The position numbers were made by a program, and so were the translations under genes. A stretch of 64,000 bases of DNA from Phycisphaerae bacterium (GTDB lineage: Bacteria > Planctomycetota > Phycisphaerae > UBA1845 > Fen-1342). Shown one piece after another: positions 41,447 through 52,242 of this stretch. The stretch covers positions 160,001-224,000 of the forward strand of contig CAXXWX010000006.1 of assembly GCA_963675745.2 (NCBI GenBank), given 5' to 3'. Below the pieces are notes generated by a model that was not told where the DNA came from, searched no databases, and was given only the letters and a program-made list of their open reading frames with translations. Every line of letters starts with the position of its first letter. Position 1 is the stretch's first letter.

Positions 41447-42908
41447 ATGCGGGACGATCCCAAACGAGCCTTGCCGCTGATATTCGAACAGAGCCGCGCC
41501 GGGTTGTGCGCGGTCAGCCTGCCGGGGTGCGATGTGCCGGCGTGCGACCTGGAGACCGCCATCCCCGCCGAACTGCGTTGCGAGCAGCCGCCGGCGCTGC
41601 CGGAAGTCGGCGAATTGGACGTCGTTCGGCATTTCACGCGGCTCAATCAACGCGCATTCAGCGTCGATACCAATTTCTACCCGCTCGGCTCGTGCACCAT
41701 GAAGTACAACCCGAAGATCAACGAGCGGGCGGCGGCATTACCCGGCCTGGTCAACCTGCACCCCTACCAGGACGACGCCGATGTGCAGGGCATGCTCGAG
41801 TTGCTATATCGCACCCGCGCTATGCTCGAACAGATCACCGGGTTTCATGAGGCGTCACTGCAACCCGCGGCAGGAGCCCATGGCGAGCTCACCAGCCTGT
41901 TTGTCATCAACGCCTTTCACCGAGACCACGGCGGGCCCCGATCCAAGGTGCTCACGCCCGACTCGGCTCATGGCACCAACCCGGCTTCATGCGCCGTCTG
42001 CGGTCGCCAGGCGGTGCCGGTCAAATCGATGGCGGATGGCTCGGTTGATCTGAACGACTTGCGCGCGCTGGTTGATGAAGATACCGCCGCCATGATGCTG
42101 ACGTTTCCCAACACGGTCGGCAAGTTTGAGCGTCACATCGCGGAGATCGCCGAGATTCTCCATGCGAAGGGCGCGCTGCTCTACGTTGACGGCGCGAATC
42201 TCAACGCGATCTGCGGTATTACGCGCCCGGCTGATCTGGGCGCCGACATCATGCACTTTAACACGCACAAGACCTTCAGCACGCCGCACGGCGGCGGCGG
42301 TCCGGGGGCGGGCCCCATCGCCTGCGTGATGAAGCTATCGCCCTACCTGCCCGTACCGCAGGTGATGAAGCGCGATGATGGCAGCTTCTATTGGAACGCC
42401 GATCGCCCGCGCTCGATCGGGAAAGTGCGCTCATTCTATGGCCAGATCGGCGTGCTGGTGCGGGCCTATACGTTCTTGCGCGCGCTTGGAAACAGCGGGT
42501 TGCGCGCCGCCAGCGAGACCGCCGTGCTCGCGGCGAATTACCTCGCCGCCAGGCTCAAAGACCACTACACCCTGCCTTACGGCGGTCCGTATGGCCACGA
42601 GTTCATTCTGCTGCCCGAAATGGAAAAACAGGGCATCAGCGAACTCGACGTGGCCAAGCGTCTGATTGACTATCGGTTTTCACCCGCCGACGATGAGTTG
42701 GCCGGTGCCGCACTGTCTGATGATCGAGCCGACCGAGACCGAGTCGAAGCAGACGCTTGATGACTTCGCCGACGCGATGATCCAGATAAAGCGCGAGGCG
42801 CTCGAGGAGCCGGACAAGGTCAAGCGCGCGCCGCACAACGCGCCGGTCCGCCGTCTCGATGAGGTCGCCGCCGCCCGCAAGCCGATTCTGCGCTGGCAGG
42901 CTGAGTGA
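41447..42908 (+). pseudogene. gcvPB: Glycine dehydrogenase subunit 2, interrupted by a +1 frameshift near 42673 (true lesion or sequence error)
   Basis: YPLGSCTMKYNPK, HFNTHKTFSTPHGGGGPG; the conserved DYGFHPPT...[10 protein letters not shown] continues in the next frame (42666-42908). Confidence 0.9.
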
Positions 42909-42947
42909 ATTCGCGCGGGTCAGCCGACGATGCGCTGACACAACCGC

Positions 42948-44133
42948 TTACCACACCCCCGGGATCTTCGTGCCGCACTTCGGGCAGTGGCCGGCTTTCA
43001 TGTTGTTGGCCGCCACGCGGAAGCCGATGCGGCGGATTAGGTCGTGGCCGCAGCCGTGGCAATACGTGTTCTCGCCGGGGTGCATCGGCACGTTCCCCGC
43101 ATATACGTAGCGCACACCGGCGTCCAGCGCGATCTGGCGGCAACGCTCAATCGTCTTGACCGGCGTGCTGGGCAGGTTGGTTACCCGGTAAGTCGGGTGA
43201 AACCGTGTGAAGTGCATCGGTACGTCCGGCCCGAGATGTGCGACGACCCACTCGCTCATTTCCCTGATCTCGGCGGCCGAGTCGTTCAGCGTCGGGATGA
43301 TCAGCACCACCATCTCAAACCAGATGCCGATGTCCTTCAGTGTCTCCAGCGTCGCCAGCACCGGTTTGAGCTCGCCATCGCACGAGTCGGCGTAGAACTT
43401 CTGCGTGAACGCCTTGAAGTCGATCTTCACCGCCGATAAGTGGTGGCAGAGTTGACGCAGCGGGGCTTCCTGGATGTAGCCGTTTGAGATCATCACGCTG
43501 CCAATGCCCGACTCGCGCGCCAGCTTGGCCGTGTCGTGCATGTATTCGTAGAAGATGACCGGTTCGGAGTAGGTATATGCGATCGTCGGACATCCACTGG
43601 ATTGGCAAGCGGCGACCAGGCGAGCGGGGGTTACCGGCGTGCTCTCCACCTGCTCCGGGCGGAACTGGCTGATCCGCCAGTTCTGGCAGAACTTGCACTC
43701 CATGTTGCAGCCCGCCGTCGCTATCGAAAACGCCTTTGTCCCTGGACGGAAGTGAAAGAGCGGTTTCTTCTCGATCGGATCCACGTTCGCCGAGCAGAGC
43801 GCGCCATAGACCAGCGTCTGGTACTCGCCGCGCACATTCTCGCGCACGCCGCAATAGCCGCGCTCGAGTTCCGCGACGTGGCACTCCCGCGGGCACAGCA
43901 CGCACTTGATTTCGTCAGTCGCCGTGTTGTTCCCAGAACATCGCCCGGCGGCGCACGACGCCTTTCAGTAGCGGCCCCGAAAGAGCGCCGGTGCCGGCCG
44001 TATCCTGTGCAAACACGCAGCCGGCACCCAACGCGCATGCACCGCCAGCAAGCCCCCAGCGCAGCAGTTCGCGGCGCGATGGCTGTGAGAAGACGTCGTC
44101 GAGGTTGTCCACGTCAGACCTCGATACGTTCAA
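42948..44133 (-). pseudogene. amrS: AmmeMemoRadiSam system radical SAM enzyme with Tat signal, split by a +1 frameshift at 43917 (true lesion, recoding or sequence error)
   Basis: DPIEKKPLFHF.PG, AGCNMECKFCQNW.ISQ, AYTYSEP, HFTRFHP.Y, C-terminal CxxC pairs; the upstream frame has SRRELL and AMFWEQ and joins to DEIKCVLCPREC. Confidence 0.88.
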
Positions 44134-45118
44134 TCCTCTTCAAGTCACTGACGCCCAGGCCCTGCGCCCCCGCCGTGGCAATGTACGTCGGCGGGCGGCC
44201 GGCATCGGCGAGGGACTCCATGCCCTGTGCGGCGCGGTGTTTTTCGAGGTAGTCGACACCGACAGCATCCAGCGCCACGAAGTCGGTGCTGGTGATCATC
44301 CCGCCGAATCGCCAATCGTAGGCGCGTTTCCTCATCGGCCCGCCTTCGTACTGCCCGAGCGTTCCATCACAGACGGTCAAGCGCCACTTGTCGCGAATGA
44401 ACGGGTGCCTGACGATGTCGGCGATGTATGGATCGCAACGGTTGCCGTGATACTTATTGGGGTTGTGGATCGCGCCGTAGAAGTTCTTCATGCCCAGCGA
44501 GGCCCCGGCAATGCCATGGTCCTTGAGCACGGGGGCCGAAATGAGCGCGTCGATGCGCTCGGCCAGAATTTTCGAGAAACAGGAGCCGATCTTGCCGCTG
44601 GTTTGCACGTCGCGCTGATAGCCTCCGCCCAGCCGGCTGGCGTCGGTTCCGCGACACTGCACGCCCTTGCCTGACTTGTTGAGCTTGAATCCCGCGCGTT
44701 CCAGCTCGGAATCGAAACGGTCCCAGATGACAATGTTCTCCGCGGGGACATCCGCCTGCCGCAAGCCGGCGACGATGGCATCCACGACCGCCGGCTGTGT
44801 TGTGCGGCCGAGGCAATTGACCTTGATACCAATGCGTTCGGTCGGCTTGAAGAGCTTGCGCCACGCGCTGGCGGCATCCGCGGACTTGGTCAGCTTCTGC
44901 ATCGACGCATCCAGCATCTTGCACAGCAGATCCGCGTGCTCGCTTATCTCCCCTTTCAGCAGGGCGTCGTCGCGGGCGATCGCGACCAGCGCGCCCGGCG
45001 CCGCGGCACCCTCCTCCGCCCAGACTTGCTCGAATGGCACCGCGGCCCCGGCGACCACCGCCCCTACTTGTGCGAGAAACTGCCGTCGACTCGTGAGATC
45101 TGGCCCATGCATCAGCAT
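44114..45118 (-). CDS. DUF362 domain protein with Tat signal peptide
   Basis: SRRQFL, IGIKVNC, PVLKDH, SLGMKNFYG, DFVALD. Confidence 0.88.
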   Translation of the reverse strand: MLMHGPDLTSRRQFLAQVGAVVAGAAVPFEQVWAEEGAAAPGALVAIARDDALLKGEISEHADLLCKMLDASMQKLTKSADAASAWRKLFKPTERIGIKVNCLGRTTQPAVVDAIVAGLRQADVPAENIVIWDRFDSELERAGFKLNKSGKGVQCRGTDASRLGGGYQRDVQTSGKIGSCFSKILAERIDALISAPVLKDHGIAGASLGMKNFYGAIHNPNKYHGNRCDPYIADIVRHPFIRDKWRLTVCDGTLGQYEGGPMRKRAYDWRFGGMITSTDFVALDAVGVDYLEKHRAAQGMESLADAGRPPTYIATAGAQGLGVSDLKRIERIEV

Positions 45119-45160
45119 TCCGCCTTTCTGCCGATTGCGACACTGCCGCGACCGGCGGGT

Positions 45161-46669
45161 CTAATCACACCCCGGCTCGCCGAAAACTTCCGCTTCAAAC
45201 GAATATATCTCCGTGTCGCGTTGCTTCCAAGCATCATTTGGCAAACCTGCCTTGCGGCAGGTCTGCGCGAGGAACTCTTCCCGTCGCCAGCCCCGCTCAT
45301 AGGCCACCTGGGGCAGCAAAACGCCGCGCCGTCCGCCGCGCGCTATCAGCAATCCGTGCTGACCAATGATGATGTCCCCCGTGGACTTCATGCGTTGCAT
45401 CGGCGTCAGGTAGCTGATTTCAATGTCCAGATCGTCAAGCTCGCCGGCCGTGACCGGATTGTGTACAAAGCGGCGATCGCGACACGCCGCCACCGCGTTG
45501 CTGATTACAGCCTCGTACAGCGGCCCCGTGGCCAGCATGTTGCCGATACACCCCCGCAGCTCGCCGTGGTTTTGCAGCGTCACAAAACACGCGCCGTCGC
45601 CGCGCAGCTTGGCGGGCAAGTCGGCGGCGCTCGCCGCGGGCACTTCCTGGCTTTGCAGATAGGCCTTCACCGTGGCACGGGCCATCTTCAGCAACCTGTC
45701 GCGCTCGTCGGCCGCCAGCGTGCCTTGCCGCGGCGTGAAAACGAACGACTGGTAGGTGACGCTGTTGGTCCAATCACCGGTGATCTGGCCGGATGTGTCA
45801 AAAGCCGCGCGCGTTGCCCGGGCACCGCCGCGCATCGACAGCACACGCAGCAGGAGTCGTACGGCACCGCGCCCGCAAATTGTATCGCTTGTCTTGTCGA
45901 GGTGGGCGGCGAAACCGTCGTAGTCGCAGCGCTCAATCGCTGTGGCGGCTTTGTCCGCCAGGTCGCGCAGGCGCGTCGGCACATCCTCGCTGAATGGCTG
46001 GTAACCGTAGTTAGGCCCGAAGTGAGTGAAGTCAGTGCTGGCGACCAGCAGCGTCTCGTCATCAATCAGCGGGAGCAGGGCGTGTGCCGCTCGCGCGCAG
46101 TCATCGTCAGACATCCGCCCGACCAGGAGCGGCACCAGCGAGAAACTGCCCAGCGCGCGCTGCAGGAAGGGCAATTGCAGTTCGAGCGAGTGTTCGCGCG
46201 CGCCGACGCCGGTGTGTGCGCCGTATAGCTCCGAAGTCCGCAGCGCCGCAAATGCTTCGCGGTCGAGGGCAACGTCTCCCAGCGGCGTCGCATAGGCGGA
46301 CAAGTCGTCCGGCACATCCACGCCCTTGTACGAGCCCGCGTAACGATGATCCAACGCCAGCACGATCACGCGCTTGTAGGTGTGCCCACGCAGAGCGGCG
46401 TAGGCCGCCGCCGCCACCGGTGCGCTGAACCGGTAGCCCGCGTGCGGGCTGATCAGCGCGACGGGTTTGCCTGTTGTTTTGGGGGGGCCGTGCTTATCGA
46501 GCAGGCCGTCAATCTGCTTCGTGAGCTCAGCCGGGTCAGCCGGGTACCAGGTCCCGGCAAAACCTGCCGGTCGGACCTTCGCCTCATCTTTGGCACAGGC
46601 GTGCCCGATCGAGGCAACACCTGCGGCCGCCAGCAGAACAAAGACAGCGCTAATTCGTGCCGCGGGCAT
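45161..46669 (-). CDS. amrB: Fused AmmeMemoRadiSam protein B (Memo-like) and protein A (AMMECR1-like), with signal peptide
   Basis: RPAGFAGTWYP, PHAGY, EHSLELQLPFLQ, STDFTH, TICG; then CFVTL...LRGCIG, GVLLPQVA, CRKAGL. Confidence 0.93.
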   Translation of the reverse strand: MPAARISAVFVLLAAAGVASIGHACAKDEAKVRPAGFAGTWYPADPAELTKQIDGLLDKHGPPKTTGKPVALISPHAGYRFSAPVAAAAYAALRGHTYKRVIVLALDHRYAGSYKGVDVPDDLSAYATPLGDVALDREAFAALRTSELYGAHTGVGAREHSLELQLPFLQRALGSFSLVPLLVGRMSDDDCARAAHALLPLIDDETLLVASTDFTHFGPNYGYQPFSEDVPTRLRDLADKAATAIERCDYDGFAAHLDKTSDTICGRGAVRLLLRVLSMRGGARATRAAFDTSGQITGDWTNSVTYQSFVFTPRQGTLAADERDRLLKMARATVKAYLQSQEVPAASAADLPAKLRGDGACFVTLQNHGELRGCIGNMLATGPLYEAVISNAVAACRDRRFVHNPVTAGELDDLDIEISYLTPMQRMKSTGDIIIGQHGLLIARGGRRGVLLPQVAYERGWRREEFLAQTCRKAGLPNDAWKQRDTEIYSFEAEVFGEPGCD

Positions 46670-46752
46670 GGGATACGCCTCCATCACCATTCACTGATGG
46701 ATTGTACCGCGAGGTCTCCCGGAGCGCCGGTCCGCGCCGTGCGACCTGCCTG

Positions 46753-49592: not shown

Positions 49593-49629
49593 GTGATATC
49601 CAGGAGTGATTCACCACACGGGAGACACC

Positions 49630-52242
49630 ATGTACCGACCATTTGTTTTGGCTGTTCTGCTGACCACCGTGTTCGCCGGAAGCCACCCCACCGCGATCGC
49701 CGCCGGCCATCGTGACTGGACAGTTGTCCCGTTGGGTTCGTTCCAGTTGGACCAGGATGAGCAGGATATCGTGATTCGCCGTCCATACGATCGTTTCGGC
49801 GTAATTCAAACGCCGATCGCGTTGCTGGCCGTGCCGGACCGGGCACAGATTGCATCGGGCGAACCGATGAAGATCACGATGTCGATCGGGGAGACAACCT
49901 TTCCTGAGTGGAACATCGACTCGCCGGGGCAGATCTACGTCATCGGTGTCGAAGTCCAACAACGGCATGCCACCCAAGCAAACGCCGCCCTGACAATGCA
50001 CGTGCGTGTTGAAGGTGCGGCGGCGCCGGTACAGTTGATCGCCAGCGCCCCACCAGACCTTTGTCTGGCCGGCGCCCACTGGGTTGGACCGCTGGCCGCG
50101 CGTGTGGAGCAGTTGGAACGCGGGTTGCCTCGCGAGTACCTGACCGCGGCCCTGGCGAGCAACGTTGTGCCACTGGATCAGGCGCGGGCGGAGTTTGCCC
50201 GCCTGTCCGAATCCGCCGATCCGCGGATCGCCAGATATGCCCGCGAGAAACTCCGGCGGATCGACTTCGTCATCGCGGAGCGCAGTGCATCCGAGGATTT
50301 CGCCGGCCACTATCGCCTCGGCCTCTACGCACAGCAGTGCGGGCTTTACCGACACGCCCTGACGCACTTCGCCATGGCGACGTCGTTCGACGGTGCAAGT
50401 GCGTTTGAACGCAGCGACGCTCTGTACCGGCTGGCGGAGGCGATGATGCGCTGTGGGGAGCCCATCAGCCGCGTGGCCGACGTGGCGGAGCAGGCCGGCA
50501 TCGCGGCGGCCGTCAAAGCCAACACCTGGGATGTCTGCCTGGCCGTCCTGATGGCCGAGCACACCGACGAGGTCAGTGAAGACGGGGCCGCGACAGAACC
50601 GAAGCGCATGCGCCCAGATCAGATCGAGACGTTGAAGCGCGACTGGGGGATTGTGGAGAAGATGGTTTTCGGTGCTTCCGGCGGCTACTTGCGCCTCAAG
50701 ACGCGAGTCATCCAGGTACCCAGCAACCAGCGCGTTGCTTACGACGTCTTCGGCGGTTGGTTACCGGGGCCGGCCGACGGGTTTCTCAGCCAGCGTGGCG
50801 ATGTTGACGTTGTCATGTCGTTTCGGCCCGGAGGGGCTTCGGTGACAGGCGGCGCCGATTGTGGCCCCGACGGTTCCGCAATGGTGGACATTGGCCCGGA
50901 ACGCGGATGGGAGGTCTTTCTTCACGAGTGGAACCACTCGTTCGACTGGGCACGCATCACCGGGGAGACTTGCGCAGGCTATCCAATCACACACCATTCA
51001 GATGGTTGCGGATACCAGCCCATTCCGTCCATGGGCTATGGACATCTTTCCAGTATGCGCTACTGGGCCCCACCGGGCATGTACCAACGCACCGAGCTGG
51101 CGGATACCGACCCCGGCACGGGTTATGTCCGCAACTGGTGGCTGGGCCAGCCGCACGCCATTGACGATGATCCCCCCGCCCAGGGCACGCCAACCGCACG
51201 ACACGCGCGTGAATTCGGCCCGGATCGCTTCAGTGAAGCCGACAGAGACTACAGCGGATTCGACGGCAACTTCATCGACCTGCTTCCCCATCTAACCGAG
51301 ACTTTGGGCGCCGAGCGCCCCGTCTGGTGTGTCACGCAGGCGACCACGCATGTCTGGTCTCCCGAGCGGCGCGCCGTACGCCTGTGGCTTGGTCACAATG
51401 ATGGCATGGCGGTCTGGGTCAATAACGAGCTGGTGCATCGGGGGGATTACTACGCCATCGCGAAGTTTGAGGACCAGAACTGGCCCAACATGGCGTGTAC
51501 GGGGGCCCTGCTGCTGCAAGGTTGGAACCGGATTGACGTGGCGGTCGAATCATGGCCGGCGCCGTTCGACAAAGGCTATGGGTTCTCGGTTCGCATCTGT
51601 GATTACGACAACCATGAGATTCCGGATCTGAAGATCGCCACGGCGGGCAGTGACGCACCGACGACAATTGCTCCCGACGCGCTCGCCCCGCGTTTCGGGA
51701 GGTTCTACAAGTGGGATCAGGTGCGCGACGACTACTACTGGAAACTCCCGCGCATTACCGCCGAGGACTTGCGCGATCATTGCGGGCTGGCTGACGGCGC
51801 CACGCTTTCCGTCGTGAGCAACATCGGCCCCACCAAGGGCTTTCTGGCCATTGGAGCATCGTCGGACAAGAGCGATGGCACGCTGCTACCGATCCCCGAC
51901 GATTGGGACCGCGAGCGCGATCGTGACGAGCGGGTCAACAACATCATGGACTACAACCGCGAGGCGATCGCGGTCTACCCGTTCGAGATGCGCGGGCAAA
52001 CTCGGCATCTGCTGATCATGCGGCCGGAAGCGGTCGGCCCATATCTCAAATGTCTCAACGAAGCCCCCGACGCAGCACGCGTGTACGCGGATAAGCCGGT
52101 GAGCGATCGCATTGTCGGGTATCTGCTGACCGGCCGGAACATCGGTGAGCAGGAGGGTGTCCGCGCCTGGGTTGTGGCGGAGGCGATGCTGCCCGCGCCG
52201 CTGCCGCTTGATGAGGAAGATCTGCTGGCGCCGCTGCCATAG
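49630..52242 (+). CDS. Large exported hypothetical protein with HExxH motif (putative metallopeptidase)
   Basis: GGAG RBS, signal peptide, TPR-like segment, VFLHEWNHSF, jelly-roll-like RLWLGHNDGMAVWVNNELV. Confidence 0.75.
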   Translation: MYRPFVLAVLLTTVFAGSHPTAIAAGHRDWTVVPLGSFQLDQDEQDIVIRRPYDRFGVIQTPIALLAVPDRAQIASGEPMKITMSIGETTFPEWNIDSPGQIYVIGVEVQQRHATQANAALTMHVRVEGAAAPVQLIASAPPDLCLAGAHWVGPLAARVEQLERGLPREYLTAALASNVVPLDQARAEFARLSESADPRIARYAREKLRRIDFVIAERSASEDFAGHYRLGLYAQQCGLYRHALTHFAMATSFDGASAFERSDALYRLAEAMMRCGEPISRVADVAEQAGIAAAVKANTWDVCLAVLMAEHTDEVSEDGAATEPKRMRPDQIETLKRDWGIVEKMVFGASGGYLRLKTRVIQVPSNQRVAYDVFGGWLPGPADGFLSQRGDVDVVMSFRPGGASVTGGADCGPDGSAMVDIGPERGWEVFLHEWNHSFDWARITGETCAGYPITHHSDGCGYQPIPSMGYGHLSSMRYWAPPGMYQRTELADTDPGTGYVRNWWLGQPHAIDDDPPAQGTPTARHAREFGPDRFSEADRDYSGFDGNFIDLLPHLTETLGAERPVWCVTQATTHVWSPERRAVRLWLGHNDGMAVWVNNELVHRGDYYAIAKFEDQNWPNMACTGALLLQGWNRIDVAVESWPAPFDKGYGFSVRICDYDNHEIPDLKIATAGSDAPTTIAPDALAPRFGRFYKWDQVRDDYYWKLPRITAEDLRDHCGLADGATLSVVSNIGPTKGFLAIGASSDKSDGTLLPIPDDWDRERDRDERVNNIMDYNREAIAVYPFEMRGQTRHLLIMRPEAVGPYLKCLNEAPDAARVYADKPVSDRIVGYLLTGRNIGEQEGVRAWVVAEAMLPAPLPLDEEDLLAPLP

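Follow-up and report, generated by a model that had tools for sequence, protein, structure and literature searches.

Organization of the cassette

We analysed a stretch of 64,000 nucleotides from a Phycisphaerae bacterium (GenBank assembly GCA_963675745.2, contig CAXXWX010000006.1, positions 160,001 to 224,000; hereafter the window), in which three adjacent genes on the minus strand probably encode an export-tagged form of the AmmeMemoRadiSam system (Table 1). An earlier note on this DNA had described three tightly packed co-oriented genes, a Memo/AMMECR1 fusion, a DUF362 protein and a CxxxCxxC radical SAM (S-adenosylmethionine) enzyme, here called amrB-A, DUF362-1 and amrS. It placed all three correctly, and profile matches bear out each identity. 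AmrB-A scores 198 bits against TIGR04336, the model of the Memo-like B protein (cut-off 26), and 170 bits against TIGR04335, that of the AMMECR1-like A protein (cut-off 99). Its start at 46669 is preceded by GGAGG; position 46690 is an alternative start. Alignment to MEMO1 (3bcz) and PH0010 (1vaj) shows that the PHAG, H, EHS, DFTH, CG and LRGCIG motifs are retained. Among its orthologues LRGCIG is present in 57 of 57 and the H81 motif in 41 of 57, the remaining motifs of the MEMO1 site being found in 48 to 57 of 57. The amrS gene starts with GTG, one base past the stop codon of DUF362-1, and close homologues of its product have additional Cys clusters at both ends. Sequence searches of the PDB gave no match for DUF362-1 or AmrS. 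By all tested criteria, namely the three models, the CxxxCxxC motif and the co-occurrence of the genes, the cassette is assigned to the AmmeMemoRadiSam family.

In this assembly the leader and the core of amrS lie in different frames. Contigs of runs X1 and X2, both from one sample that is possibly the source sample, are each one base shorter at 43917-43919; they are likewise one base short at 42672-42674, the site of the break in gcvPB. Since these contigs lack the surplus base, the amrS frameshift is an assembly error, and a true frameshift or a pseudogene is rejected. The gcvPB frameshift is an assembly error too; both breaks being erroneous, other frameshifts in this assembly are doubtful. 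The same contigs lack one further base at 42908-42912, in an intergenic position.

Table 1. Features of the cassette, in positions of the window
Feature	Position	Strand	Evidence
amrB-A (Memo-like domain fused to AMMECR1-like domain)	45161..46669	-	TIGR04336, TIGR04335, PF01875, PF01871
Predicted Sec-type leader of AmrB-A, without RR motif	46592..46669	-	sequence; hydrophobic leader in 50/58 scored orthologues by threshold
DUF362-1, LarA-clan protein	44114..45118	-	PF04015, E 2e-21; colinear profile alignment to LarA homologues, P=0.0015
Predicted Tat-type leader of DUF362-1 (SRRQFL ... VWA)	45017..45118	-	TIGR01409 above cut-off; 64/68 scored orthologues
His-x9-Lys-x12-His motif of DUF362-1 (H159, K169, H182; mature part)	44447..44518	-	98-99% conserved in 136 homologues
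amrS, AmmeMemoRadiSam radical SAM enzyme	42948..44112	-	TIGR04337, 376 bits (cut-off 220), full-length match
Predicted Tat-type leader of AmrS (SRRELL ... VFA)	44008..44112	-	79/80 loci; 12/12 relatives retrieved by core alone
CxxxCxxC radical SAM motif of AmrS	43686..43709	-	invariant in 108 aligned sequences; 120/120 close homologues
One surplus base, cause of the apparent amrS frameshift	43917..43919	.	absent from X1 (depth 8.3) and X2 (depth 5.4) contigs; relatives in frame

Conservation of the predicted export leaders

The three leaders quoted in the earlier note, one of Sec type and two with a twin-arginine (RR) motif ahead of a hydrophobic stretch, read as it had written them. Signals for twin-arginine translocation (Tat) were scored with a home-made rule that combines a pattern with hydrophobicity and is modelled on a TatFind-like consensus; as a control, 68 of 2383 internal windows of this genome were positive. 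The catalytic core of AmrS alone was searched against 41 related genomes. The matches fall into a close group (61-81% identity), found in 13 of the 41 genomes, this one among them, and a distant group of about 40% identity. Read by eye, an in-frame RR leader precedes the core in 12 of 12 close relatives. Of 16 distant loci that could be scored, 15 lack such a leader and one (L014) has it; a further locus (L030) is cut off.

When GTDB genomes were scanned, the query being a relative that bears the leader, 403 loci were obtained, of which the best 80 were used. Most carry the label Phycisphaerae or that of other Planctomycetota, and some come from Anaerolineales, Acidobacteriota, Gemmatimonadota, Ca. 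Abyssobacteria and anammox bacteria. AmrS passes the Tat rule at 79 of these 80 loci, the remaining one being cut by a contig edge. DUF362-1 passes in 64 of 68 scored cases (one at an edge, three without a leader; two partial matches dropped), and its leader in the window reaches 21.7 bits against the Tat model TIGR01409 (cut-off 16.7). AmrB and AmrA are fused in 60 of 61 loci. A hydrophobic leader was called on 50 of the 58 AmrB-A proteins scored (three partial matches dropped); three of the eight others miss the threshold narrowly and five, by eye, have a lipoprotein-like leader further upstream. In a protein search, 117 of the 120 closest AmrS homologues pass the Tat rule and the other three begin downstream of the RR position; for the leaderless paralogue of this genome, none of the best 120 homologues passes. 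The genome also encodes TatC (PF00902 above cut-off). With the genes of relatives beginning ahead of an RR motif that is in frame with the core, these data support the extracytoplasmic reading offered by the earlier note, and the cassette is probably an export-tagged, extracytoplasmic variant of the AmmeMemoRadiSam system.

Several points tell against this reading. The leader calls depend on our own rule, and the location of the proteins is predicted from their sequences. Against PF10518 the AmrS leader scores 18.2 bits, under the cut-off of 22.7, and among 150 DUF362-1 homologues at greater distance the Tat pattern is missing from 34. Two of the homologue searches, including the GTDB scan, used a leader-bearing query, which favours leader-bearing matches; because the leader lay within those queries, the core-only search (12/12) is the unbiased count.

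The hydrophobic region of the AmrS leader (44008-44070) holds conserved cysteines, GxACGAxC in most relatives. At three loci from Gemmatimonadota the RR leader is present on AmrS but not intact on DUF362-1; a leader on AmrS alone hints that the two proteins may be exported as a complex.

Leaderless paralogues and linkage of the three genes

The same genome holds leaderless amrS, amrA and amrB genes, dispersed on another contig (C19), to which the cassette cores are only about 40% identical. Given this separate leaderless set, the set in the window is a second, export-tagged copy. In a tree of 52 AmrS cores built with the leaders excluded, 35 Tat-bearing sequences stand apart from 17 leaderless ones with a single change (mean of shuffles, 14.5), in line with the earlier idea that leader-bearing amrS genes form a clade.

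The leader-bearing amrS is preceded by DUF362-1 at 66 of the 73 loci with enough upstream DNA, and by amrB-A at 48 of 55 loci with enough DNA. Among the 41 genomes, a DUF362-1 orthologue (at least 51% identity) is present in exactly the 13 genomes of the AmrS clade and in 0 of the 28 others; AmrB-A is found in those 13, in two more (G025, G028) and, more distantly, in a third (G001). Four of five genomes with atypical amrS loci hold a DUF362-1 orthologue, the fifth (G042) giving no match to it, and in both anammox genomes DUF362-1 and AmrB-A bear leaders though they are located away from amrS. The linkage thus agrees with the view of the earlier note that the DUF362 protein is an added component tied, like amrB-A, to signal-bearing amrS; the leaderless paralogues and four likely further components outside the window had escaped it. 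Two cautions count on the other side: the core tree was a quick one in which long branches meet and in which the leaderless sequences are a single subfamily from one order, and the identity thresholds for co-occurrence were placed at gaps once these had been seen, among related genomes that are not independent.

Additional Tat-bearing AmrS proteins were observed in two settings. A second group (L044:2944-5599, L045:5692-8321, L046:7510-10206), with 41-44% identity to the AmrS of the window, lies directly behind a protein of 490-520 residues that has a hydrophobic N-terminus and no Pfam match, and for which the ESM Atlas was uninformative. Three anammox-related genomes (L128, L129, L130) also carry Tat-AmrS; in L129 and L130 two DUF1538 genes, a small gene and a CBS gene lie between it and a downstream membrane gene with the spermidine-synthase (SpeE) fold. 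L129 is labelled Deltaproteobacteria, yet it clusters with Scalindua in the core tree. In the anammox-related genomes the destination of export could be the anammoxosome.

Probable partner genes outside the window

Relatives often carry four further genes behind the trio, encoding a membrane protein of about 800 residues with a spermidine-synthase (SpeE) domain, a DUF6599 protein with an N-terminal helix, a second Tat-bearing DUF362 protein (DUF362-2, which passes the Tat rule in 7 of 8 cases) and a polyferredoxin. In this genome the four lie at C6:241272-247421, about 35 kb beyond the trio and outside the window. The SpeE-fold membrane protein (at least 40% identity) occurs in all 13 genomes of the AmrS clade and in one of the 28 others, the polyferredoxin (at least 56% identity) in all 13 and in six of the 28. 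The system is probably larger than the trio.

The SpeE-fold membrane protein has seven predicted helices, a soluble domain and six to seven further helices (14-helix, two-repeat topology), and the enrichment of basic residues in its loops, following the positive-inside pattern, places the soluble domain outside by prediction. Its two membrane halves are homologous (P 8e-6; score 42 vs at most 20 in 25 shuffles), a repeat as in carriers of the major facilitator superfamily (MFS); its score against NF037959 is below the cut-off. Within the SpeE-fold domain GGG (28/30) and the S/TxYQ and DAR motifs are retained, while the Asp of GGGDG is found in 0 of 28 sequences and the catalytic-loop Asp in 0 of 27. 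We take these two Asp to be the aminopropyl-transfer residues. With the motifs of the adenosyl pocket kept and both Asp lost, the domain probably binds an adenosyl ligand and does not carry out aminopropyl transfer.

The polyferredoxin resembles NapH and then NapG, with four helices, and an internal RR precedes the NapG part in 8 of 8 sequences. For a member of the NapH-NapG polyferredoxin family, Tat-dependent assembly was shown with reporters, according to the searched parts of Tooke et al. 2017 (PMC5449189). The SpeE-fold membrane protein and the polyferredoxin are candidate suppliers of SAM and of electrons, and the four further components address a question that the earlier note had itself raised, how SAM and electrons would be provided outside the cytoplasm. 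Four points weigh the other way: the SpeE-fold gene lies downstream of amrS at only 23 of the 48 loci with enough DNA, a PDB search with the membrane part of its product gave no transporter match, six genomes have the polyferredoxin module and not the trio, and the reducing power of quinol alone does not suffice for a radical SAM cluster.

In one genome outside the AmrS clade (G020, 97% complete), contig C10 carries genes for the membrane protein, for DUF362-2 and for the polyferredoxin, but no AmrS match was obtained. In another (G001, 68% complete) amrB-A adjoins a more distant SpeE-fold gene on contig C344. In the genome studied here a DDE transposase gene (PF13701) and a PEP-CTERM gene adjoin the second half of the system (L051:4910-6292), and are perhaps related to its separation from the trio. 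A link of the cassette to the neighbouring glycine cleavage genes or to the upstream binding-protein gene was rejected, as neither recurs beside it in the 20 regions compared. Scans for promoters and terminators around the cassette stayed at chance level. The window further encodes, at 49606-52242, a protein of 878 residues whose N-terminus resembles a signal and which matches neither Pfam nor NCBIfam models.

DUF362-1 and LarA

DUF362 and LarA (PF09861) are placed in the same Pfam clan, CL0471, in the parts of PMC11770544 that were searched, from which the roles of the catalytic His, the cofactor Lys and the nickel His of LarA are also taken. A first comparison, led by an atypical sequence, gave a match of 28 columns only (E 0.054). 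A profile of 136 DUF362-1 homologues aligned with 10 LarA homologues over 199 columns (P 0.0015; score 32.7 vs at most 22.9 in 30 shuffles), and in this weak alignment H159 falls on His174, K169 on Lys184 and H182 a few columns off His200. DUF362-1 has no Lar_N match and no LarA C-domain, and differs from LarA also in its Tat leader. Lar_N has no match anywhere in this genome (91% complete), in which larB, larC and larE are all present. A search of the ESM Atlas with DUF362-1 returned unnamed clusters only. On the basis of the clan and the aligned residues, we regard DUF362-1 as a clan relative of LarA and not as a member of the LarA family. Racemase activity is unlikely, and the chances that its cofactor would be the nickel-pincer nucleotide or a relative of it seem to us evenly balanced.

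The case for such a cofactor is lessened by several results. The alignment has a probability of 17%, and His108 and Arg75 of LarA are not retained. LarC is present in 38 of the 41 related genomes, with or without the system, and is therefore uninformative; among the genomes that have the system, one (G008, 87% complete) gave no LarC match. In 14 control genomes DUF362 was found in five, LarC in six and both in only four, Bacteroides thetaiotaomicron having DUF362 without LarC.

Across the 41 related genomes, LarC was detected in 38, Lar_N in 16 and DUF362 in all 41. As LarC is far commoner than Lar_N, a user of the nickel-pincer cofactor in this order is left unexplained.

Discussion

Radical SAM enzymes are treated as cytoplasmic, since they need SAM and a strong reductant and contain an oxygen-sensitive cluster. 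With the known AmmeMemoRadiSam system (TIGR04335 for A, TIGR04336 for B, TIGR04337 for the radical SAM enzyme) the cassette shares matches above cut-off to all three models, clustered genes and the catalytic motifs; it differs in the fusion of B and A, in an export leader on every protein, in the inserted DUF362 gene and in the co-inherited membrane partners. Burroughs and colleagues reportedly extended the gene contexts of Memo, in 2019, to nucleotide-base and isoprenoid modification. In the literature searched, AmmeMemoRadiSam is named in single mentions in papers titled on other subjects; in the parts searched, PMC7159879 goes no further than a citation of Burroughs et al. 2019 for Memo-Ammecr1 systems, and DUF362 is not mentioned in those of PMC13524815. 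Searches under phrases for an exported radical SAM enzyme found no paper on one, and we found none that describes an export-tagged variant; Burroughs et al. 2019 or its supplement may already note the neighbours or the leaders.

The partners have likewise been compared with known proteins. The polyferredoxin follows the polytopic polyferredoxin PFD, a NapH-NapG fusion (PMC5449189), in its NapH then NapG order, four helices and internal RR; this is a likeness of architecture and not a direct protein alignment, and the searched parts of that paper link PFD to neither radical SAM nor DUF362 proteins. The SpeE-fold protein shares the fold and the adenosyl-pocket motifs with SpeE, the membrane polyamine aminopropyltransferase PRK03612 and the fused MFS-spermidine synthase NF037959. 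It stays below all their cut-offs, lacks both Asp and carries its domain, predicted outside, between two membrane repeats.

We consider it rather probable, from the leaders and the intact motifs, that radical SAM catalysis takes place outside the cytoplasmic membrane. The strongest rival, which we nevertheless rate as unlikely, is that the proteins are exported and the radical step precedes export: AmrS would mature DUF362-1 or another cargo in the cytoplasm, or carry one bound SAM out, and the activity in the periplasm would be that of the matured partners. Neither SAM nor a strong reductant would then be required outside. The nearest characterised models of AmrS are the protein-activating enzymes PflA and YjjW, and DUF362-1 and amrS are translationally coupled. 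The HXS antiphage system offers a precedent, its radical SAM proteins being tied to a periplasmic function and proposed to mature a periplasmic effector from the cytoplasm; in the searched parts of PMC13128918, however, these proteins have no signal peptides. A cytoplasmic maturase would not need an RR leader, yet the leader is kept in almost all close AmrS homologues (117/120). Moreover, AmrB-A, with its Sec-type leader, should not fold inside, and the co-inherited SAM-fold domain is predicted outside.

That the leaders are instead tethers to the inner face of the membrane, without export, and that the enzymes modify a membrane lipid or a polyprenyl carrier, appears very unlikely. Such tethering would keep the SAM chemistry in the cytoplasm, the cysteines conserved in the hydrophobic region of the AmrS leader are unusual for a plain signal, and Burroughs et al. 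2019 reportedly linked Memo systems to isoprenoid modification. Two of the proteins, however, have typical RR-x-FL/LL motifs, hydrophobic regions and AxA-like ends, and the third has a different, Sec-type leader whose sequence varies freely while its hydrophobicity is kept, as in signal peptides, some examples ending, by eye, in a lipoprotein-like Cys. Slightly less probable still is an exported AmrS that does not cleave SAM and serves AmrB-A and DUF362-1 as an iron-sulphur (Fe-S) electron carrier or scaffold. The problem of SAM supply would disappear, and the extra Cys clusters at both ends would suit this role, but the CxxxCxxC motif is intact in every close homologue (120/120), TIGR04337 matches over its full length, and AmrS co-occurs nearly one to one with a membrane protein of adenosyl-binding fold. 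An artefact of assembly or of start-codon choice can be practically dismissed: the assembly does contain indel errors, and in the window leader and core are in different frames, but the error is the surplus base between them, and in-frame leaders recur at 79 of 80 loci from several phyla.

For catalysis outside the membrane, the observed leaders, catalytic motifs, gene order and co-inheritance of the membrane partners are consistent with the following scheme. AmrS would acquire its Fe-S cluster in the cytoplasm and then be exported in folded form by Tat. DUF362-1 would be loaded with its cofactor inside and leave by Tat, possibly bound to AmrS, and AmrB-A would leave by Sec and bind its metal outside. 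The SpeE-fold membrane protein might carry SAM outward, 5'-deoxyadenosine back inward, or both; that it handles these compounds across the membrane is a tentative proposal, to which we give a little less than an even chance. Electrons might cross through the NapH-NapG polyferredoxin, with Fe-S clusters on both faces, together with DUF362-2 and DUF6599, and a transmembrane path by this module is somewhat more doubtful again. AmrS would then cleave SAM, AmrA/AmrB would hold the substrate from which the radical takes H, and a hydride-transfer step would fall to DUF362-1. The weakest step concerns the substrate, which would most likely be an envelope-located or incoming small molecule or a lipid-linked compound, and not cellular RNA or DNA; the preference of the earlier note for an envelope substrate over a nucleic acid is a reasonable supposition. 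The complete assembly, a seven-gene machine with a Tat-exported AmrS, a transporter dedicated to SAM/5'-deoxyadenosine whose SAM-fold domain is periplasmic, an Fe-S wire across the membrane and exported DUF362 proteins representing a new nickel-pincer hydride-transfer class, is unlikely to hold in every part.

If true, a Tat-exported radical SAM enzyme would break the rule that confines these enzymes to the cytoplasm, and would imply the export of SAM and a low-potential electron path across the membrane. An exported variant would also constrain the unsolved function of the Memo and AMMECR1 proteins, of which human homologues exist: if the same chemistry is at work extracellularly, cellular nucleic acid is unlikely to be its only substrate.

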